The notes under the pieces are model-generated. The model searched no databases. It worked only from the letters and a program-made list of their open reading frames with translations, and was not told the DNA's origin. Source: Verrucomicrobiaceae bacterium (GTDB lineage: Bacteria; Verrucomicrobiota; Verrucomicrobiia; Verrucomicrobiales; DEV007). Taken from it: a DNA stretch of 64,000 bases. Positions 44,220-53,893 of the stretch are shown in pieces. Position 1 is the first letter of the stretch. The number at the start of each line of letters is the position of its first letter. The stretch covers positions 5,144 to 69,143 of the forward strand of contig JAAESJ010000233.1 of the NCBI GenBank assembly GCA_024229495.1, given 5' to 3'. The translations under genes were made by a program, and so were the position numbers.

Positions 44220-44813
44220 ATGAGGTTTCGAGGCATGGCATTAATGACAATGTGCGTGGCAGGCCTGTTACTGGTTCCTGCATGGCAGCTACGGGCTGAT
44301 CTTCATCGCTTTGAAAATGCCGATGGAAGCAAGTCCTTCTATGCGGAGTTGCTTCGCGTTGATAACAAGAAGCAACTGGTGACGGTTCGTATGGTCAGTG
44401 GCAGGGAAATGCACTTCCCGGTTTCCATTCTCAGTAAAAAAGACCAGGAATGGGTTGATGTTCAGAAAGAGATTCTTGCAGCGGGTCGCTGGCTACGGCT
44501 GAAACTTACCGGAGAGTGGGGCAAGAGGACAGTGACCAAGGCGGAGTCATCAAAGACGATTCTCAGTGAGCGGCTTTACTACTCCGAATTGTCCAATTTC
44601 GGCTCCTTGCCACTCAAGGACCTGGAGATCACCTACAATATTCACCTTTTCCGGGATGATGGTAAGAGCGGTAGCCGCTCTGTACGCACGCACACTGAGA
44701 AAGTCAGCTATCTGAGTTCCGTTCCGCGCAGGGACGGGTTGGAGCCTGTCGTGCTCTCCCAGACCATGCCCCTGAGCAGGGTGAGCGGGAGTAGCGCTCC
44801 CGGAGGAGGGTGA
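44220..44813 (+). CDS. Secreted SHD1 (SLA1 homology domain 1)-containing protein
   Basis: Signal peptide MALMTMCVAGLLLVPA. DGSKSFYAELLRVDNKKQLVTVRMVSGREMHFPVSILSKKDQEWV matches the SHD1 pattern common in PVC bacteria. It ends at TGA 44811-44813, but the same frame stays open for 46 more codons (see findings). Confidence 0.6.
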   Translation: MRFRGMALMTMCVAGLLLVPAWQLRADLHRFENADGSKSFYAELLRVDNKKQLVTVRMVSGREMHFPVSILSKKDQEWVDVQKEILAAGRWLRLKLTGEWGKRTVTKAESSKTILSERLYYSELSNFGSLPLKDLEITYNIHLFRDDGKSGSRSVRTHTEKVSYLSSVPRRDGLEPVVLSQTMPLSRVSGSSAPGGG

Positions 44814-45088
44814 TGTCTCTCCCCAAGATCGGTGAGTTCACCGAGGAGTTCAGGTCCCAAGGTTGACTACAAGCGCGATGCCGTGGAGAAGATCGTGGTG
44901 ACGGTTAGCAAGTCGGGGCAAGAGGTCTTTCGCTACTCCACGGGCGACTAACTAGAAGCAATATTGCAGGAAAGTGGGCTTGCGTTGCCGGAATTAATTA
45001 GGAAGTATTGACTTTTTTTCCTATATAAATCGACTTACTGCGGGTTTTCCTAATTCCAAACAGTACGCTAGGATATGCGTCTAATTTA

Positions 45089-46948
45089 TTGGATAAATTT
45101 ACCATGGCATTTGCACACAAGACGGACATCGCTGTAATTGACTGTATAGGTGGCACCTTCGCGCAGGCGGTCAATTCACCCTTCATCATTGGCTCGGGAC
45201 CGGAGTGTCACCTTAGGGTGGATGATGACCGGGTCCTTGATCAGCACTGCTTGATTGAGAAGACAAAGAAGGGGATTCAGATCAGGGCAGTGCAACCGGA
45301 CCACCCAAGTGGGGAAATGGTGATCAACGGCTCATCAGCCAACCTTTCTCCGCTCAAGCGCCCCCAAGAGTATTCACTACAGATTGGCAGAAGCTTCCTG
45401 ATCATTGGTGCGGCTAAGGCGACCAAGGCGGAGGTTCTTCAGCGTTGGGGAATGGAGATCAGAAATACGGGTTGGATTATCAACAAGTCCAATGCAGCAA
45501 GTGCTTCACGTCCGCTGGCGTTACAGGAGGTATTCGCGGCCCGGGACGCCATGGCGTTGGACCCGGACTCAACACCGGTATTCAAGGGGGGAAGTCAGGT
45601 GGGGTTTTACCTGCGACAATTAATGATACGTGAGGATGCTTCGCATGTGGCGGCGCCGATGGCAGTGGTTGAGGATGCGGTAGATGCTCCGGTGGCAACA
45701 CGAGTTGAGGAGGGTGATGTGCGCCCGCCAGATGTAACTCGATTTGTTGACAGCGAAATTGGCGATTTTGGATGTCCGACATGCTGGTTGCGATTCGACA
45801 GCGGTGACGTCATGCACGTTGCCGTTCATGAGTCACTCTTTGGAGATCCGCTCCTGGGCGAGGAGCACATGAGACGATTTGAGGCTACCCGGTTCAATGA
45901 CCGGGGGCAGGCCCTTGATGAGCAGGGGGTGCCATGCACGGAGATTGCCTGTCCGCATTGTCGACGAACTCTGCCTCCAGGATTTTTTGATGATCCGCAT
46001 CGTATCTTCTCCATTGTCGGTGCACCGCAGTCCGGTAAGTCCTATTACCTTACCGTGTTGATCAAGCTGTTGCAGACTACGCTATTCAAGAAGTTTGGCA
46101 TTGTCTTCCGTGATGCCGACCCGACCGGTAACGCTCCGCTTAACGAGATGAAGAGTCATCTGTTCAGTGCGCAATCTCCCGCTCAGGCATTTCTCACCAA
46201 GACCCAGCTTGAGGGAGAGATGTATGAGCGATTGCCGCGGTATGACAAGATGGTTACTCTGCCCAAACCCTTCATTTTCTCTCTTTCCGGCGCTGATACA
46301 GATGAGGGCGCGTGTTCGGTTGTGTTTTATGACAATGCCGGCGAGCATTTTCAACCCGGGCAGGATTCAGCCAATTCCCCGGGGGCACAGCACATCGCCG
46401 CCTCTGATGCGATCTTTTTCCTTTTCGACCCGACAATCAACCCTGACTTCAGGGCCTGCATTACCGGGGCGGATGATCCGCAGCTTTCCTCACACGTCTC
46501 CGATCAACAGGATGTTATCCTTGCCGAGACCGAGGTGCGCATGAAGAAGCTTTTAGGCTATGGCAGGCGGGAACGAGTCGATACGCCATTTGCGGTGATT
46601 GTAGGCAAGTGTGATGCCTGGATCGATAAAATTGGGGTTGATAAATTCCGTGATCCTATCGCTGACGGACGCATTGACCTTGGTGCCATTGAGGAAAACT
46701 CTGCCCATGTGCGTGCATTAATGGAGGAATACTGTCCCTACATCGTTGCCAACGCGGAGACCATTTCCTCCGACGTTACTTATTTTGCGTCAAGTGCCTT
46801 CGGTCATACCCCGGTCACCTTTGAGGATGACAAGGGGATTACCCGCATTGGTCCGGATCCCACAAAGATCAACCCCATGTTTGTCGAGGTGCCGACCTTA
46901 TGGGCGTTGTCAAGAATTCAGCCGGAGCTTGTTCCCTCGTTCCGCTGA
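45089..46948 (+). CDS. FHA-like domain + split zinc ribbon + TRAFAC-type P-loop GTPase (gene 1 of a three-gene operon)
   Basis: 619 aa. The FHA-like region is FIIGSGPECHLRVDDDRVLDQHCLIEK...MVINGSS...YSLQIGRSFLII (aa ~17-107). The zinc ribbon is C229PTC232 ... C288PHC291. GTPase motifs are G1 GAPQSGKS (nt 46019-46042), G3 DNAGE (46331-46345) and G4 GKCD (46604-46615). No TM segment. The start is TTG 45089 or ATG 45104. Confidence 0.75.
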   Translation: MDKFTMAFAHKTDIAVIDCIGGTFAQAVNSPFIIGSGPECHLRVDDDRVLDQHCLIEKTKKGIQIRAVQPDHPSGEMVINGSSANLSPLKRPQEYSLQIGRSFLIIGAAKATKAEVLQRWGMEIRNTGWIINKSNAASASRPLALQEVFAARDAMALDPDSTPVFKGGSQVGFYLRQLMIREDASHVAAPMAVVEDAVDAPVATRVEEGDVRPPDVTRFVDSEIGDFGCPTCWLRFDSGDVMHVAVHESLFGDPLLGEEHMRRFEATRFNDRGQALDEQGVPCTEIACPHCRRTLPPGFFDDPHRIFSIVGAPQSGKSYYLTVLIKLLQTTLFKKFGIVFRDADPTGNAPLNEMKSHLFSAQSPAQAFLTKTQLEGEMYERLPRYDKMVTLPKPFIFSLSGADTDEGACSVVFYDNAGEHFQPGQDSANSPGAQHIAASDAIFFLFDPTINPDFRACITGADDPQLSSHVSDQQDVILAETEVRMKKLLGYGRRERVDTPFAVIVGKCDAWIDKIGVDKFRDPIADGRIDLGAIEENSAHVRALMEEYCPYIVANAETISSDVTYFASSAFGHTPVTFEDDKGITRIGPDPTKINPMFVEVPTLWALSRIQPELVPSFR

Positions 46949-46979
46949 ATGGGTTTGAAGGCTTGTTGATAGAAAGTCC

Positions 46980-49900
46980 ATGGCATACCAACTCATCTAC
47001 ACCAGTGTTAGCCGGGGACTGATTCCCGGTCGCAGCGGATATACCGTTGCGGCAAGGCACCGGCAGATCCGTGATCGGCTGGTATCCGACATTGAGCGCA
47101 TCAGCGGGTATACATTTGCCACCTCCGGTGTTTCTCCGGTGATCTACGCACACCGCAGAATTTCCTGCTCGGGCAAGGAGTATCATGTCCTGACAAGGAA
47201 CAAGGATGCGGGTTCGGATTATACCGGGCGCACCAATCACCTGGCGCATCACCTAGTCTGTGAAGCTGATGAGCTTTCCGATTGCGGGGCCTCGCCGGCG
47301 GAAATTCTGCATGGTTTCGATTGGCTGGAGAGCTATGAGGATGACCCGCGTTATCTTGAGGACAATGAGATCATCGACCTTGGGAAATTTTCAGGGACCT
47401 TCAGTCTGCCGGCAAGGAACTGGCAGGCGGTGCGAGGTGAGGCGGGGGATGCAGCCCTGCTTATGGATGAGAAGGGCAAGCCCGATAGTGCATTCGTTGT
47501 GGCTTCTTCCGGCGATGATGCTGAGGCAAGAAAACTCCTCTCTTTGTATGCCGAGTCCCTGCAACTGGCGCAGTCATCAGATGATACCCCGGCAATGTGG
47601 GAGGCTACATTCACCACGTATCTGCAACAGGTTGACACTCTTGCTGACTTTGATTGGGCCGGGTGCACGGAAGAGCAGGCCTTGTTACAGCGCCCGGGCA
47701 ATCGCATGGTATTGAACCTTGCTGCGATCGACGCGCCAACACCCGGATCAAAGCTGGCAAAGCTTGCGGCAACCGGCCGGGCTGAGCCGCCGCCACCAAC
47801 TCACAGAGCACCGGTAAGCTTGCCGCAGCCTGATGCCTTGCAGCAACAGGCTTCAGATGTCGGGCAATCCGACTTTGGCGAGCAGGACTTACAGAAGGGA
47901 GGCCAGTCGCGCCGGGTAACCTTCACTCCTGTTGATTCTCAGGGAGAGGTGAAGAGGCGGGGACCCTTGAAGTTGCGGAGTCCAAGTCCGGTTCAAGCGC
48001 CATCGGTTTCCATGCAGTCATCGGGGGAGGGGAAACTCGATTTTTTGAAGCGCCCGGAAAATCTTCGCTTTGTCATAGGAGGCGGTGCTGCTGCCGTATT
48101 GGCGCTTGGGCTTTTATGCTATTACCTCTTCAGTGTTCATCCCCGTCAGGATTTTGAGGCTGAGGTTAAGGGGAATATCGCCAATGATTATTGGCAGGGA
48201 GCCATGGACCTCATCGATAAGGAGAAGGAGAACATGGACGTAGAGTTGGTCGAGGAGCTTCGCCGTGAGGTGATAAGGGCGATGCTTCTTCAGGCTGAGG
48301 AGATTAATGAGAGGTATGCCACGGAAAATGATGAAAAGGTGAAGGAACTTCAGGAAGAGGTGTCGGCAAAGCTGGAGAAGTTGCAGCGATTTGAGGAGAA
48401 ATACGATCTTCGAAATGAGGATATTGAAAACCTTGTGGCAAGCTTCGAGAGGATTAAGAAGACCAAGATCAATAAGGAATTATTGAATCCCGCGAGCCCG
48501 GGAGTTGCCTCTTCCGGTAATAAGCCATCCCCGGGGGATACTCCTGATCCCAAGGAGCAATCGTCGGGCAAGGAGGTGGTTGACGGTGGCAATAAGGATG
48601 TCACGTCGGGTGAACCTGTTGAGAAGGAGACAAGGGAGGGGGTGTTACCTAACTCTGTTTACCTGTTTCTCAATGATCAAACTGTGGCACTGGAGAAAGT
48701 CCAATACAGTGAATCCTGGGCGGGGTTGCAGAATGGAAAGGAGGGCCAGAGAAAGGTGCTCATGCGTCATTACGGATTGAGGCCCGACAACCTGCTGTTG
48801 TTAGATCCATCATCCGGGGATCAATACAGTTATAAGTTTCCGGAAAGCGCTGAAGAGGAATCATCCGATGGGTATTTTCCTCTTGATGGTGATTTGAACG
48901 TTAAGGTGATGTTCAAAGGGAGTGAGACAGTGTTGTTGAAAAGGGGTTCCGCCGGAGATGAAGCGAATAATGCCTGGGATACGGCATTGAGCAACCTCTT
49001 TGCTTTTGAGGGACAGGGTAACAGGTTTCAGGTGTTACTCTGGAGTGGGGTACCCTTCAAGGTTACCAGGGTCAAGCCTTTTACCATGAGTGGAAAGGTT
49101 GTTGGGGTGACCGATGGTTTCGGGAGATACCTTGCTTCATTCAAGGCGGGAGATTCTTTTGGGGCTAAAGCCGATCCAACGGAAATTTTCATGCGTTACG
49201 TTTCCGGGAACTCTTCAGCAGGAGAGAAGTTATCCTTTGAAAGTGACCGTTTCAAGTTGCCCTTGGAGGACGGTTACAGGCAGCTTACGATTGATTTTAG
49301 TTCCAATGGGGACAAAAGCAGGGGTGATATTGCGGATCTTGGGAAGAAAGTGGATGAGGCAAAGGCAAGTCTTGGTAATTATGAAAGTTACCGAAGGTGG
49401 TTTGCTTATCGCGAGTCACTGAAAAAGGATTTGGGGCAGATGGGTAGGGATTATATAACAAGATTCAAGGAAAAGGATTACCCCCAGATTTGTGATCCGG
49501 GAAATTTTTCCAAGGAGGATGATGTTCGTGAGCAAATCCTTGAGTTCGCGGAGGACATGGTGGACGGGTTTCCTGATGCACTGGAAGAGCAGGGAGTTGG
49601 TGATTCGGATGTCAGGAGAGTTACATTTTCCCTGTCTTCCAGCAAATTCAGTGAACTGAGCTTTGCGTCCACTGTTGCCAAATTCAAAATGGTAATGGAT
49701 GCGTTTGCAGAGTCTTGCCGTGGCCTTGCGAAATCATCTTACAGGGATGACGATGACGACCGTGTTTATCGCATAAGGGACAGGGATGCGCGTGAAGAGA
49801 TTGAGAAATTTGCCGAGCGCTGGGAGGATTTTTTCGGCGGTGAAAAAGGTGGGCGACTATGGCATATCGTTGAGGCTAAACCTAGAGTGCCAAACATGAC

Positions 49901-50102
49901 AGAAAAGGAATATAGTCGGATGAAGCGTCGCCTTAATGAGCTAGTAAAGCGCAAGGCTGCTGCGGATAAGGCTAACAAGAGGTTTAATTATCTCAATACG
50001 AGCGGGATGCCTCCGGGAATTTATGAGATCGTGTTCGTGTTCGGGGGAGATAAACAGATGCCGTTCGTGATCTGGAGCAAGGAGGGGAAAAGCGGAAGAT
50101 GA
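46980..50102 (+). CDS. Large single-pass membrane protein with a possible GAP1-like (GTPase-associated protein 1) N-terminal domain (gene 2 of the operon)
   Basis: 1040 aa. The N-terminus reads MAYQLIYTSVSRGLIPGRSGYTVAARHRQI. A Pro-rich linker covers aa ~250-350 and a TM helix FVIGGGAAAVLALGLLCYYLF covers aa ~363-385, nt 48066-48134. A charged coiled-coil-like stretch covers aa ~405-500 and a P/S/G-rich spacer aa ~503-550. A ~490-aa C-terminal region has no recognised motif. Confidence 0.7.
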   Translation: MAYQLIYTSVSRGLIPGRSGYTVAARHRQIRDRLVSDIERISGYTFATSGVSPVIYAHRRISCSGKEYHVLTRNKDAGSDYTGRTNHLAHHLVCEADELSDCGASPAEILHGFDWLESYEDDPRYLEDNEIIDLGKFSGTFSLPARNWQAVRGEAGDAALLMDEKGKPDSAFVVASSGDDAEARKLLSLYAESLQLAQSSDDTPAMWEATFTTYLQQVDTLADFDWAGCTEEQALLQRPGNRMVLNLAAIDAPTPGSKLAKLAATGRAEPPPPTHRAPVSLPQPDALQQQASDVGQSDFGEQDLQKGGQSRRVTFTPVDSQGEVKRRGPLKLRSPSPVQAPSVSMQSSGEGKLDFLKRPENLRFVIGGGAAAVLALGLLCYYLFSVHPRQDFEAEVKGNIANDYWQGAMDLIDKEKENMDVELVEELRREVIRAMLLQAEEINERYATENDEKVKELQEEVSAKLEKLQRFEEKYDLRNEDIENLVASFERIKKTKINKELLNPASPGVASSGNKPSPGDTPDPKEQSSGKEVVDGGNKDVTSGEPVEKETREGVLPNSVYLFLNDQTVALEKVQYSESWAGLQNGKEGQRKVLMRHYGLRPDNLLLLDPSSGDQYSYKFPESAEEESSDGYFPLDGDLNVKVMFKGSETVLLKRGSAGDEANNAWDTALSNLFAFEGQGNRFQVLLWSGVPFKVTRVKPFTMSGKVVGVTDGFGRYLASFKAGDSFGAKADPTEIFMRYVSGNSSAGEKLSFESDRFKLPLEDGYRQLTIDFSSNGDKSRGDIADLGKKVDEAKASLGNYESYRRWFAYRESLKKDLGQMGRDYITRFKEKDYPQICDPGNFSKEDDVREQILEFAEDMVDGFPDALEEQGVGDSDVRRVTFSLSSSKFSELSFASTVAKFKMVMDAFAESCRGLAKSSYRDDDDDRVYRIRDRDAREEIEKFAERWEDFFGGEKGGRLWHIVEAKPRVPNMTEKEYSRMKRRLNELVKRKAAADKANKRFNYLNTSGMPPGIYEIVFVFGGDKQMPFVIWSKEGKSGR

Positions 50103-53100
50103 AGACGGCGACCCAGGTTCTGACAGGTGCTATCTGGAAAGTCCTTTCCGGAAAGGATGAGAATCATGATGTAGAGCAAACCGCGAGGGAGTTTGTCGAC
50201 CTGTGCAGTGATGTTGCTGAGCGGTTGGAAGGTTGCCGGGATTTTAAGGTGGAAGGGGAAGAGGAGAAGGCGGTGGATTTGGCCGAGAAGGAACCACCAC
50301 TCATGGAGGCGCTTGAGACACTGGCGAAGTTTCGCCAGAGGCAGGCTTGGGCGGATTATTGCAGGAAACATTCATTGCCGGTGGCGCCTGAAATCGACAG
50401 GGAAGGAGCTGACTGGGTTTTAGGGCTCTATAAGCAATGGGAAGGGACATCCAAGCTGCTGTGGAAAAAATACCGCGATGCGGTTATTCGCAAGGATCAG
50501 CAGGTGATGATCTCCGTAATTCACCGGATCATCAAGCTGGATCCTTCAGATCGCTCAGCCCTGGATGAGAACAACCGTATTATGCGGCGCTATTTCCGGG
50601 AACAGAAGACGGAACTGGAGAAGCTTGTTGATGCCGGTGAGCAGGACAAGGCACTGGAGCTTGCCGATGGGCTTGACCGACTTCCCTTTGACAAGCTGAA
50701 GAGGGGCAGGGCATGGGAAACGGCGATCAAGTGGCGCAACGCGCTCAAGCGCGAGAGCGATGAGAAGAAGCTGGATGACTTGATTGCCGAGCTGCCTGGC
50801 CAGTGTGAATCCCGGGAGCTGGAAAGTGTCAGGGAGAGTGTTGCTGAGTCGCGCACCCTGCTCAGGATTCACAAGTTTGATCTGGAAGGTGAAGAGAAGG
50901 GAAGGCTTGATGATGCAGAGGCCTGGATTCCTGCGGAGGAGGACAGGTTGAAGAAGGAGGGGCTTTCCAAGGAGGCTGTTGAGCGTTGCATGAAGGAGCT
51001 TACCAGGATAGAGGGCAACTGGGCGGTTGTTTCCAAGGGTTCGGTTGGGTCCGCCAGTGAGGAGCGCAGAAAATTGAGTAACAGTTGGCGGGAGGTAGAG
51101 AAGATTGGCAGTGGAATCGGCCATGAGTTTTCCGGAAGGGTGAGTGCTGCCAGGCAGAAGCTTGATGTTATTGTTGCCAATCTCAAGAAGAAGAGAATGC
51201 GGAAAATTCGCACGGTTGCTGCCGTGCTGAGCATGATTGGCCTTGCGGTGAGTTACTACTTCTATGCTCAGTGGCGCAGCACGTGGATGATCGAGAAGTT
51301 TGCCGTCTACAAGGGCAAGGGCTTGGCTTTGCCATTGAGGAAGCTTGTGGATAGCACCAATACCTATCGCAAGCCGATCGAGCTACTCGCGCATAAGCCC
51401 TTCGCAAGCAGGCTGAAGAGTGCGCGAGCCTGGCTTGAGCGGGAGGAAGCCCATATGGAGGGGGTGAAAGAGACCATTCGGTCCATTGACAAGGAGACGG
51501 CGAAGCAATTTACCCGTCCCATTGATGACTACTACGCGGAGGTTGAGGCGATAGAGGGCAGGATAGCGGATGCTGTTACCGATCTCTCGGAGTTGCTTGC
51601 CCGGGAAATGGGACCTTTCAAGAAACGTTGGCTGGCTCATGTGGACGCTTACGTCAACGGACAGAACGAGCGGCGAAACAAGGCAATTAGCGAGATGGCC
51701 GATGTTCTGCAATCGGCACCTGCATTGCAGGTTGCCGCACGTGATGATGCCCTTTTCGAGCAGGTTAATGCCCTTGTCGTGGAGGTGCGCGATGCCATGC
51801 AGACGATCATTCCTCCATCAAAACCACTTGAGGGGGCGAGTAAGCAGGTCAAGGACCTTGGTCCTCAATTAACGGATCTTTCCAAGCGCATGGAATTGTT
51901 CCGCGGTGCGCTGGAGGCGGCCAACAAGGCTGCCAGCCTGGCCGATTATAATTTGGCAATGAAACGGTTCCAGGAGGGACCCTTCGAGAACACTCCTGAA
52001 CGTGCTGCGGCGATCGAAGTCCTGGGCTTTGAGAAGACGATTACCCAGGTGACGGGAGAGATCATTGCCCCGGGTGATCCCAGGGCATGGGCCTTTTTCC
52101 AGGCCAACCGTAACAAGGTTGACCTTTATCCCAAGGTGATTGAGGAGAGCGAGCGGGTTGTTCTTGAGCAGCTGAGTAAAGATGAGAAGCTTGAGGAGCT
52201 TTACCGGTGCGCTTTCAGGGAGGTGCCCAGCGGGAAGATCTTTGTGCGTTATTGTGCCGGGCCGGTTGAATTGCGCAAGCGCAGGGTCGGCCCTGTTGAG
52301 ATCGTGGAGAGATTGGGTGACTTCTTTCAGGGGGGGCGGTTTGGAATCGTGAAGTATGAGTTCAAGAGTGTTCCCGCAGCAACGATCAACTGGGTTGGCA
52401 CGGATTTGACCAGCGAGGAAATTAGCACAGAGACCAACTTGTTCAGGAAGATCCGGCCCAACGAGACACTGATGAGCCAAAGTCAGCAGTATTACCGTTC
52501 GGGGGTATTGTCCGTCTTCGATGATATTTTATCAGCCACTGATGTGCACCCTCTTTTCAAGGCCTACATGCAGGTGGAGTTGAGTAAGGTGATCATGCGG
52601 CGGGCACACGAATGGGGAACCTTGTTTGCACCCAGTGTAGTGAGTGACTTTCAGGAGATTAAAGCCATTGTTCCCGCTCTACTTGGCAGGCATGACTGGC
52701 TGTGGACAGACAAGTATCCCGAGCAAGAAAAGGCCATAGCAGACTTCTACGCCAAGCGAGGTGACTACAGCTATGTGAAGGAGTCGAAGGTTAACCGCAA
52801 CCTGATCGAGGAGGCAATTAAATCCGGATTTGGCCTGGCGGGCTACATGGACATTGATAGACAACCTGTTCTCCTTCCGGAGGCGGAGCAGGCAAGCAAG
52901 ATTTACGGATCGTTGACGCCCAATGTGCCGGCAACCACTGTCTTGCAACGCACCGGGGATGAGCAATGGCAAAAGGTGGGGAATGCCGCACCATTCACAC
53001 CGCTCTTTTTCTTTAAAGGTGACAGTGGAAAGATCATGGAGGAGGTTGCCGATAAGGAAGGTGAGGATGTTGACCGTATCCGGACGATGTCTCTACCATT

Positions 53101-53110
53101 TTTCCGATGA
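50099..53110 (+). CDS. Large single-pass membrane protein, helical N-terminal region, unknown function (gene 3 of the operon)
   Basis: 1003 aa. The start overlaps the gene 2 stop (ATGA 50099-50102). The ~365-aa charged helical N-terminal part ends in NLKKKRMRKIR. A TM helix TVAAVLSMIGLAVSYYFYA covers aa ~370-390, nt 51206-51268. It is followed by a ~610-aa C-terminal region with no recognised motif. Confidence 0.7.
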   Translation: MKTATQVLTGAIWKVLSGKDENHDVEQTAREFVDLCSDVAERLEGCRDFKVEGEEEKAVDLAEKEPPLMEALETLAKFRQRQAWADYCRKHSLPVAPEIDREGADWVLGLYKQWEGTSKLLWKKYRDAVIRKDQQVMISVIHRIIKLDPSDRSALDENNRIMRRYFREQKTELEKLVDAGEQDKALELADGLDRLPFDKLKRGRAWETAIKWRNALKRESDEKKLDDLIAELPGQCESRELESVRESVAESRTLLRIHKFDLEGEEKGRLDDAEAWIPAEEDRLKKEGLSKEAVERCMKELTRIEGNWAVVSKGSVGSASEERRKLSNSWREVEKIGSGIGHEFSGRVSAARQKLDVIVANLKKKRMRKIRTVAAVLSMIGLAVSYYFYAQWRSTWMIEKFAVYKGKGLALPLRKLVDSTNTYRKPIELLAHKPFASRLKSARAWLEREEAHMEGVKETIRSIDKETAKQFTRPIDDYYAEVEAIEGRIADAVTDLSELLAREMGPFKKRWLAHVDAYVNGQNERRNKAISEMADVLQSAPALQVAARDDALFEQVNALVVEVRDAMQTIIPPSKPLEGASKQVKDLGPQLTDLSKRMELFRGALEAANKAASLADYNLAMKRFQEGPFENTPERAAAIEVLGFEKTITQVTGEIIAPGDPRAWAFFQANRNKVDLYPKVIEESERVVLEQLSKDEKLEELYRCAFREVPSGKIFVRYCAGPVELRKRRVGPVEIVERLGDFFQGGRFGIVKYEFKSVPAATINWVGTDLTSEEISTETNLFRKIRPNETLMSQSQQYYRSGVLSVFDDILSATDVHPLFKAYMQVELSKVIMRRAHEWGTLFAPSVVSDFQEIKAIVPALLGRHDWLWTDKYPEQEKAIADFYAKRGDYSYVKESKVNRNLIEEAIKSGFGLAGYMDIDRQPVLLPEAEQASKIYGSLTPNVPATTVLQRTGDEQWQKVGNAAPFTPLFFFKGDSGKIMEEVADKEGEDVDRIRTMSLPFFR

Positions 53111-53140
53111 TAGGTTAAGTGACTCGGGCTCGATGCGAAT

Positions 53141-53893
53141 TTAATTCCAGGGTAAAGGGCGCCCGAGCAATGATTCCAACCCTGAGTTTTGGGCGTAGAG
53201 TTGTTCGCTGAGGTAGGCGCGCAGAGCTTCGGGAATCGGTGAGGGGGGGCGTGTGTTCTCAGGCTGAGCGGCCAGTTGCGGATGAATTCCCTTGTCGGGG
53301 TTCACTCCAAGGAAAATGAAGAGTTCCCGAAGCAGGGCTTCCGGATCAGTTGCCGCCTGTTCAAGGAAGCCGCACCACAATTGTGATGAATTATAGTATT
53401 CAAGCCAAGTTTTCAGGCAACCGAGGTAGTCGCCACGCATGGCGACCTGAGGCAGTTTCATGAATTCATGTAGTTCATCAATTTTCGCTTCCTCAACGGG
53501 CTTATTGTGGAACTGAGGGAAATCTTTGCGGGCATGGGACCATGCCCGCTCAACCGGGTCGCGCATGATAAAGAGTAACTTGAGATCAGGCATCCAGGAG
53601 CGAGCCACGGAAATTCTTCCTGATTCAAGGATGGCGTAGGCTGGAGTGACCTCGCCGGCAATCATTGACTCGGGAGCGCCGGAGAAATGACGGGCATAGT
53701 CGTCCTGGGAGTCTATGAAGTGACGATCAAAGAAATGCAACTCCTTTGGTGAGCTTGTCCAGATTTCCGGGTGCCGATTGAGCTGTTTGGTCAACCAGGA
53801 TGTCCCGGAACGCATTGCGCCGATGCCAATAAAATCGGGCAGGCGGATGTTGCTGGAAGCATGATTCATATAGGATATGAGCGGAATGTTCAA
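53141..53893 (-). CDS. Sulfotransferase domain protein (PAPS-dependent)
   Basis: 250 aa. FIGIGAMRSGTSWL (5'-PSB loop) and FIMRDPVERAWS (3'-PB region). Confidence 0.75.
   Translation of the reverse strand: MNIPLISYMNHASSNIRLPDFIGIGAMRSGTSWLTKQLNRHPEIWTSSPKELHFFDRHFIDSQDDYARHFSGAPESMIAGEVTPAYAILESGRISVARSWMPDLKLLFIMRDPVERAWSHARKDFPQFHNKPVEEAKIDELHEFMKLPQVAMRGDYLGCLKTWLEYYNSSQLWCGFLEQAATDPEALLRELFIFLGVNPDKGIHPQLAAQPENTRPPSPIPEALRAYLSEQLYAQNSGLESLLGRPLPWN

Follow-up and report, generated by a model that had tools for sequence, protein, structure and literature searches.

The GTPase-centric systems were defined computationally by Kaur, Burroughs, Iyer and Aravind (2020, eLife 9:e52696; PMC7159879). 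In these systems GAP1 (GTPase-associated protein 1), a protein with N, M, and C domains, is encoded downstream of a DO-GTPase that has N-terminal zinc ribbons and a conserved Glu in its Walker B motif. Two paralogous GTPases are present in 38% of the systems and are optional. Other variable components with a transmembrane (TM) segment and a rapidly evolving FNIII-repeat protein are encoded as well. Verrucomicrobia are among the bacteria reported to carry them, and zinc-ribbon GTPases and GAP1 proteins fused to membrane helices are described as well (PMC7159879). The Pfam families of the system are PF20013, PF20014, and PF19993. We analyzed a 64,000-nucleotide (nt) stretch of a Verrucomicrobiaceae bacterium genome (GenBank assembly GCA_024229495.1, contig JAAESJ010000233.1, positions 5,144 to 69,143), hereafter the window, whose numbering is used throughout. 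Three + strand open reading frames (ORFs) lie in tandem there at 45089-46948 (619 amino acids, aa), 46980-50102 (1040 aa), and 50099-53110 (1003 aa), referred to below as genes 1, 2, and 3. The three genes are a member of this already published, computationally defined family, and an ordinary rather than an odd one. We read aa 1-250 of gene 2 as the cytoplasmic head, made of GAP1-N2 and a divergent GAP1-M, of a membrane-anchored GTPase-associated protein 1. The identity of the head and the pairing of the genes come directly from the matches and gene orders given below; the mechanism is what we infer from them, and the account as a whole has a probability of roughly 0.6. New here are the predicted longin/TagF-like fold of the head, the hypervariable Ig-like tail, and the MotA/ExbB-type additions in non-marine relatives.

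The GAP1 head and its partner GTPase

Gene 2 (46980-50102, + strand) is a 1040-aa ORF with an ATG start and the N-terminus MAYQLIYTS. Its first 250 codons (46980-47729) translate as MAYQLIYTSVSRGLIPGRSGYTVAARHRQIRDRLVSDIERISGYTF..., in exact agreement with the motif MAYQLIYTS...GRSGYTVAA quoted in the original prediction. That prediction proposed a GAP1-type N-terminal domain and a mixed alpha/beta region running up to a Pro-rich linker, and both parts were borne out. Residues 1-124 (46980-47351), for which the AlphaFold model predicts a longin-like fold, match Pfam GAP1-N2 (PF20013) at E = 2.5e-21, with a score of 76.6 bits where the cut-off is 24, and the linker and a TM helix are found at aa 251-362 and aa 363-385. 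GAP1-N2 is also matched by all 40 aligned homologues of gene 2. A protein search returned 48 relatives, every one with PF20013; 19 of these are full-length (~1020 aa) proteins of Verrucomicrobia and the others share the first ~250 residues only.

Conservation in the head extends past the Pfam match. In a 20-sequence alignment, with identity to the query down to 29%, the invariant residues are M1, L5, S9, G17, G20, A25, E39, S42, G78, D80, R84, N86, A89, H90, H91, W148, E192, F211, and T213. As they reach T213, the conserved unit is ~250 residues rather than 124. With a profile of the 262-residue head and a limit of E <= 0.001, 3504 clusters were retrieved at the level of 50% identity. Among the best 150, most are 850-1100 aa long and begin with the module at residue 1. 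A long protein with the head first is a common architecture, not an exceptional one. The original prediction had expected a divergent variant; gene 2 proved instead to be typical of a subgroup that is large in Verrucomicrobiota.

Residues 125-250 (47352-47729) are, by alignment to relatives, a second conserved alpha/beta domain, and they form a folded alpha/beta domain in the AlphaFold model. This region has no direct Pfam GAP1-M match at E <= 1. GAP1-M is matched in four of 20 aligned relatives at the position of aa ~140-245, and in relative P0048 the match at aa 158-241 aligns column for column with aa 154-239 of the window protein. Read transitively through these relatives, aa ~140-245 is inferred to be a divergent GAP1-M. 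Beyond GAP1-N2 and GAP1-M, gene 2 and the 40 relatives gave no match to any Pfam family. The Pro-rich linker and the TM helix come straight after aa 250, and in the clade of gene 2 the C-terminal part of GAP1 appears to have been swapped for a membrane anchor and an ectodomain.

Gene 1 (45089-46948, + strand), whose longest ORF is 619 aa, codes for a GTPase of the DO-GTPase2 type that also has a split zinc ribbon and an FHA-like domain. The Pfam DO-GTPase2 match at aa 307-448 scores 27.7 bits, barely above the cut-off of 27, and the FHA match at aa 33-68 is below its cut-off (18.8 against 20.7 bits). Among 26 aligned orthologues, DO-GTPase2 is matched in all 26, FHA in six (best 3e-9), and the FHA-like Yop-YscD_cpl in eight. 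Invariant in this alignment are C229-P-T-C232 and C288-P-H-C291, which make up one split ribbon and not two, the P-loop residues G311, G316, K317, and S318, and Y414-D-N-A-G-E419, with a Glu in Walker B. The view that the gene upstream of gene 2 codes for a TRAFAC-type GTPase is upheld by the DO-GTPase2 match. The longest ORF opens at a TTG at 45089 (MDKFTMAFA...). Since close orthologues begin at MAFA, the true start is probably the ATG at 45104, giving a protein of 614 aa with the N-terminus MAFAHK.

The intergenic gap between genes 1 and 2 is 31 nt, and their pairing is recurrent. In a sample of 301 genomes from the phylum, outside the genome of the window, a gene 1 homologue is directly upstream on the same strand of 34 of the 36 above-cut-off GAP1-N2 matches. 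We also retrieved 80 named Verrucomicrobiota loci with the head profile, and 77 of them have the GTPase upstream of GAP1. Most of the loci lacking the GTPase or the gene 3 neighbor stop at a contig edge. A profile match to GAP1-type domains and recurrent linkage to GTPase genes had been set beforehand as the tests on which the original prediction could fail; the Pfam match and both samples came out in its favor. Only a single homologue of the GTPase is encoded in the cassette and in the whole genome. Five genomes of one genus from the same order (g2; G102, G129, G201, G240, and G261) code for a GTPase clearly homologous to gene 1 (E = 1e-75 to 1e-107), with GAP1-N2 absent in a six-frame Pfam search. 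In this genus GAP1 is either too divergent for detection or lost.

Like the published system, the cassette has an N-terminal GAP1-N2 in a gene directly downstream of a zinc-ribbon DO-GTPase2-type GTPase with the Glu of DNAGE. It is further alike in joining GAP1 to a C-terminal TM helix with predicted beta-sandwich domains outside, in coding for another TM component, and in belonging to Verrucomicrobia. Unlike that system, it encodes one GTPase and not a paralogous pair, and this GTPase has an extra N-terminal FHA-like domain and one split CxxC...CxxC ribbon in place of two. GAP1-M is detectable only transitively and GAP1-C was not detected. A ~1000-aa bitopic helical third protein takes the place of the separate FNIII-repeat protein, and the cassette is without tubulin, HSP70, or kinase theme genes. 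Kaur et al. (2020) mention neither an FHA-like domain on the GTPase nor a conserved ~1000-aa bitopic third protein. Three traits had been called outside the textbook form; the FHA decoration, unmentioned in PMC7159879, remains so, while the TM fusion and the zinc ribbon are both described there. In the literature searched, the term GAP1-N2 was found in no paper besides Kaur et al. (2020).

Predicted fold of the head

The head was modeled with AlphaFold2 (gene 2 aa 1-270, with a 40-sequence alignment as input), giving a pLDDT of 92.5 and a pTM of 0.91. In the model, domain 1 has strands at residues 2-10, 20-27, 55-63, 66-79, and 85-95 and helices at 32-41, 96-99, and 106-112; domain 2 is alpha/beta. 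The order in domain 1, beta-beta-alpha-beta-beta-beta-alpha-alpha, matches the longin (profilin-like) topology in this predicted structure, and an alpha/beta domain follows it. The model places two invariant motifs in loops, PGRSG in the beta1-beta2 loop and GSDYTGRTN in the beta4-beta5 loop.

The best match of the head in a Foldseek search of the PDB is TagF (9t0n), with E = 1.1e-3, a probability of 0.95, 327 aligned columns, and a TM-score of 0.35. Further neighbors are FLCN-FNIP2 (6ulg), DENND10 (8p0v, TMq 0.41), the longin domain of Lst4 (4zy8), TagF of P. aeruginosa (2qnu and 6iz8), and a chain of the GATOR1-KICSTOR complex (9v0j). The E values for FLCN-FNIP2, DENND10, Lst4, and GATOR1 range from 7e-3 to 0.17. 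None of the matches is strong, although the list keeps to one theme. All the matches that span both domains are GTPase-regulator or TagF modules. A profile of the full-length gene 2 family found nothing useful among PDB sequences.

TagF, a type VI secretion (T6SS) accessory repressor, is by the model the best structural neighbor of the two-domain head (9t0n, 2qnu, and 6iz8). It works by binding Fha, an FHA-domain protein (PMC5995506). The partner GTPase in the window likewise has an FHA-like domain, and this parallel between TagF-Fha binding and gene 1 is suggestive. In contrast to TagF, the head has no sequence relationship to the family (no match to Pfam TagF_N), no T6SS genes are present, and the TM-scores are 0.31-0.35. 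Pfam TagF_N was matched in none of the 301 phylum genomes, a count that is uninformative as the control genomes likewise gave none.

The longin and longin-DENN regulators (FLCN-FNIP, Lst4, DENND10, GATOR1 Nprl2/3, and C9orf72-SMCR8) and the bacterial MglB share with the predicted head the topology of domain 1 with an alpha/beta domain after it. They are also paired with a P-loop GTPase, a pairing that is genetic in the case of the window head, and they are listed among the top Foldseek matches. Unlike the Ras-superfamily small GTPases that partner with these regulators, the window partner is a TRAFAC DO-GTPase. The window head is also tethered to a TM protein, and its likeness to them is in predicted structure alone with weak statistics. 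DENN modules were described in 2012 as confined to the tripartite DENN module (PMC3521125). Kaur et al. (2020) mention neither longin, DENN, roadblock, TagF, or MglB nor the fold of GAP1-N. In the literature searched, no paper linking GAP1 to longin-DENN or TagF was found, and none with both 'TagF' and 'DENN'.

We regard the longin/TagF-like fold as a lead rather than a result, with close to even prospects. A bolder proposal, a little short of an even bet, is that the head is a genuine bacterial GTPase-regulator module of the longin-DENN/TagF type. On that view, pairs of DO-GTPase and GAP1 would correspond, in prokaryotes and tethered to the membrane, to pairs such as Rag/FLCN-FNIP or Rab/DENN. 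In the verrucomicrobial clade of the window, the head may in addition engage the FHA-like domain of its own GTPase, as TagF engages Fha. In this way a GTP switch in the cytoplasm would be coupled to an Ig-like sensor in the periplasm that can be swapped.

Membrane anchor, variable tail, and third gene

Residues 251-362 of gene 2 (47730-48065) are 13.4% Pro, 10.7% Ser, and 9.8% Gln. They are poorly conserved, with few conserved alignment columns, and predicted to be a cytoplasmic tether. A single TM helix follows at aa 363-385 (48066-48134), with a Kyte-Doolittle value of 2.02 (19-residue maximum). One TM helix at aa ~295-390 is common to nearly all full-length orthologues. With three Lys/Arg on the N-terminal side of the helix and one on the C-terminal side, an N-in orientation is predicted. 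From this modest charge bias the head is predicted to be inside and the last ~650 residues outside. Residues 386-545 (48135-48614) appear by composition to be a charged helical stalk (19% Glu, 10% Lys) and then a spacer rich in Pro, Ser, and Gly; against Pfam this region gave weak coiled-coil-type noise and nothing else.

The remainder, aa 546-1040 with the stop codon (48615-50102), is the predicted periplasmic tail. An AlphaFold model of aa 545-1040 (pLDDT 77.7) has two tandem all-beta Ig/FNIII-like beta-sandwiches at aa ~559-772. These are followed by a long helix of ~50 residues and a helical bundle (aa ~774-1006), and by a terminal beta-hairpin (aa ~1013-1034). Foldseek gave weak matches (E = 3e-3 to 6e-3) to two-domain Ig/FNIII-type ectodomains in the PDB and among the viral models of BFVD. 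No Pfam fn3 match was found, nor a separate FNIII protein in the cassette.

The tail is the variable part of the cassette. Compared with the same-genus locus L015, identity is 95% in the GTPase core, 83% in the GAP1 head, 74-80% in gene 3, and 20-35% over GAP1 residues ~520-1000. Taken by itself, the GAP1 tail is 25-29% identical between same-genus genomes. In the window the divergent stretch is 48540-50000 (gene 2 aa ~520-1000), as seen against L015:7001-10189 and L016:7001-10192. Across six relatives the GAP1 heads are 50-87% identical and the tails 26-79%. The closest relative with the same tail type as the window is L014, and between these two the ratio of nonsynonymous to synonymous substitution rates (dN/dS) is 0.04-0.29 over all parts and 0.13-0.18 in the tail. 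Continuous positive selection was rejected as the source of the divergence, given the dN/dS of 0.13-0.18 within one tail type. Because of the same values, the sequences fit better with tails that are strongly divergent functional alleles, kept under purifying selection beside a constant core, than with decaying sequence. The divergence looks like the exchange of divergent alleles rather than steady fast evolution. A constant core with a variable module is the pattern tied to sensing in the published analysis (Kaur et al. 2020, PMC7159879).

Gene 3 (50099-53110, + strand) codes for a 1003-aa single-pass membrane protein, the conserved third component, and its start overlaps the stop of gene 2 by 4 nt (ATGA). 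The TM helix at aa 372-390 (51212-51268) has seven Lys/Arg before it and three after it, a clear positive-inside bias. Searches of Pfam, NCBIfam, PADLOC, and the PDB matched nothing to gene 3. Of the 80 named loci, 63 have a homologue of it immediately downstream of GAP1, and that of Brevifollis is collinear over 976 aa (E = 2e-54). In the Brevifollis cassette the GTPase is 43% identical over its full length, with GAP1 alike in the head alone. The cassette is a fixed three-gene unit across Verrucomicrobiota, present in Prosthecobacter, Brevifollis, Luteolibacter, some Akkermansia, Chthoniobacter, and marine Verrucomicrobiales. We rejected paralogy of genes 2 and 3, the idea that they mirror one another, as the best BLASTP E value was 2.3. 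Promoter and terminator scans of 44700-53400 gave counts no higher than in shuffled sequence and thus no evidence on the limits of an operon.

Some loci depart from this arrangement. In some Prosthecobacter-type loci an extra stretch of ~2 kb separates GAP1 from gene 3, at L046:9775-11753 and in L048, L051, and L057; in L046 it is an open frame of 659 codons with no Pfam match. GAP1-N2 ORFs of 310-375 aa, a length sufficient for just the head, are present at G223:C74:46898-47290, G154:C71:27963-28346, G163:C1:5067262-5067645, and G277:C9:446684-447067. In G223, G154, and G163 the short ORF is followed by a gene 3-like ORF of 1026-1281 aa. Given these short ORFs, the membrane anchor may be dispensable or supplied in trans.

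Genomic setting and possible role

The genes flanking the cassette in the window are housekeeping genes. Upstream are genes for a beta-helix protein, MsrB/SelR, Fur, and a secreted 197-aa protein; downstream, an M32 peptidase and sulfotransferases are encoded. Same-genus and more distant marine relatives have syntenic flanks, with Fur, SelR, and the 197-aa gene upstream and the M32 peptidase and ALGX downstream. The 197-aa protein (44220-44813) has an N-terminal hydrophobic signal-like segment, is encoded 275 nt upstream of gene 1, and belongs to no Pfam family. The same-genus contig L002 has a 197-aa gene in the corresponding place, which the more distant P0013 contig lacks.

GAP1-N2 was found in 32 of the 301 phylum genomes (11%), with one or two copies per genome. 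Among relatives, gene 2 is matched in four of 44 genera. All five other genomes of the same genus match it, four over all or most of its length; elsewhere in the family, a homologue of full length is limited to one genus out of about 31. In non-marine clades (Prosthecobacter, Brevifollis, Chthoniobacter, and others), gene 3 is followed by more conserved genes. A DUF4190 membrane protein, with an N-terminal part that is GYF-like by eye, follows gene 3 in 43 loci, and a MotA/ExbB-family channel follows it in 29; two further unassigned proteins are encoded there as well. Both DUF4190 and MotA_ExbB genes are found after gene 3 in Brevifollis gellanilyticus (L003:13678-17038). The added non-marine genes are ORF clusters 4, 6, and 15 (loci L027-L091). 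The marine clade of the window has the three-gene core only, without the DUF4190 or MotA/ExbB additions.

How the parts would work together can be proposed as follows. The head, as a longin-type platform would, may dock the FHA/zinc-ribbon/DO-GTPase from the upstream gene and set its nucleotide state as a GTPase-activating protein (GAP) or a guanine nucleotide exchange factor (GEF). The invariant arginines R18, in the beta1-beta2 loop, and R84, in the beta4-beta5 loop, are candidate catalytic, finger, or contact residues. The flexible Pro-rich tether and the one TM helix would link the head to a periplasmic stalk that bears a helical bundle and Ig-like beta-sandwiches. The outer portion, with its very divergent alleles in close relatives, is probably the sensor or ligand-binding part. 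Gene 3, which would be translationally coupled and of the same topology, is probably a constant membrane partner. An event outside would in this way be turned into a GTP-dependent switch in the cell, a putative transmembrane GTP switch. In non-marine relatives the output probably involves the linked MotA/ExbB-type proton channel cluster. The biological role we favor, at about even odds, is envelope surveillance or conflict, as the family proposal has it.

A number of observations weigh against this account of gene 2 and its role. GAP1-C, the third domain, was not detected by Pfam in gene 2 or in the 40 relatives, the presence of a GAP1-C model in the library being unconfirmed, and the separate FNIII-repeat protein of the published description was not detected either. 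The N-in topology hangs on a small charge bias (three against one). The fold likeness is numerically weak, with a best E of 1.1e-3 and TM-scores of 0.2-0.4, and PAS/LOV domains, which have the same general fold, score similarly in the Foldseek list of the head. When 20 head sequences were compared with Pfam at E <= 10, none matched a longin, DENN, or TagF family, and the head profile found nothing useful among PDB sequences at E <= 10. The surroundings in the window hold no effector enzyme, PADLOC match, integrase, or mobile-element gene; genes 0-3 gave only coiled-coil noise against PADLOC-DB 2.0 (E = 0.009-0.06). A defence-island setting was rejected, as the neighbors are housekeeping genes and the flanks are syntenic. 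We know of no experiment on any member of the GAP1-N2 family.

We weighed other explanations against the same evidence. That the GAP1 resemblance is a matter of chance or composition has next to no probability. The sole point for it is that no NCBIfam model matches genes 1-3 or the head. The 'GTPase-associated protein 1-related' model, which the original prediction had named as a check, gave no match, being absent from release 20 or failing to reach gene 2. A chance match is ruled out by the Pfam E value of 2.5e-21, by the match to GAP1-N2 in all 40 aligned homologues, and by the fixed linkage to the DO-GTPase. A quite improbable alternative is that the GAP1-N2/M head is an enzyme or a small-ligand binding domain regulated by the GTPase, with E39, S42, D80, R84, N86, H90, H91, and E192 as its active or binding site. 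These invariant residues are polar, of a catalytic type, and unusually well conserved, and the ligand-binding PAS/LOV domains among the Foldseek matches share the general fold. No enzyme family, however, matches the head by sequence or by fold, the two-domain structural matches are all to regulators of GTPases or to TagF, and GAP1-N is treated as a non-enzymatic constant element in the published analysis (PMC7159879).

More weight, though it is still unlikely, goes to a reading in which the same proteins form a housekeeping machine that is specific to the lineage and works in the verrucomicrobial envelope. Such a machine would serve surface polysaccharide, cell-wall handling, or motility-like energy transduction, with the GTPase and GAP1 as its assembly or activity switch. 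The low copy number of one or two per genome is consistent with this, as are the conservation of gene order and of the housekeeping flanks, both within the genus and in marine relatives further off, the purifying selection on all three genes (dN/dS 0.04-0.29), and the lack of the effector, PADLOC, and mobile-element signals noted above. The sulfotransferase and AlgJ-like surface-polymer genes adjoining the cassette and the MotA/ExbB-type cluster linked to it in many relatives point the same way. The distribution, however, is patchy: the five other same-genus genomes have the cassette, a full-length homologue is found in one of some 31 further genera in the family, and GAP1-N2 is present in 11% of phylum genomes. 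Between genomes with GTPases 95% identical, moreover, identity in the GAP1 tail falls to 29%, a pattern typical of molecules whose partner outside the cell is itself evolving.

Under the reading of gene 2 as a membrane-anchored GTPase-associated protein 1, three 'hypothetical' genes can be named as a DO-GTPase2/GAP1-N2 cassette. Three points make the family testable. From the predicted longin/TagF-like head comes a hypothesis for biochemistry, that it acts as a GAP or GEF through the arginines named above. The hypervariable Ig-like tail beside a near-invariant head and GTPase points to the seat of specificity. Cultured bacteria, Brevifollis gellanilyticus and Prosthecobacter fluviatilis, carry the cassette. 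If true, the longin/DENN relationship would bear on the prokaryotic roots of the GTPase regulators found in eukaryotes.

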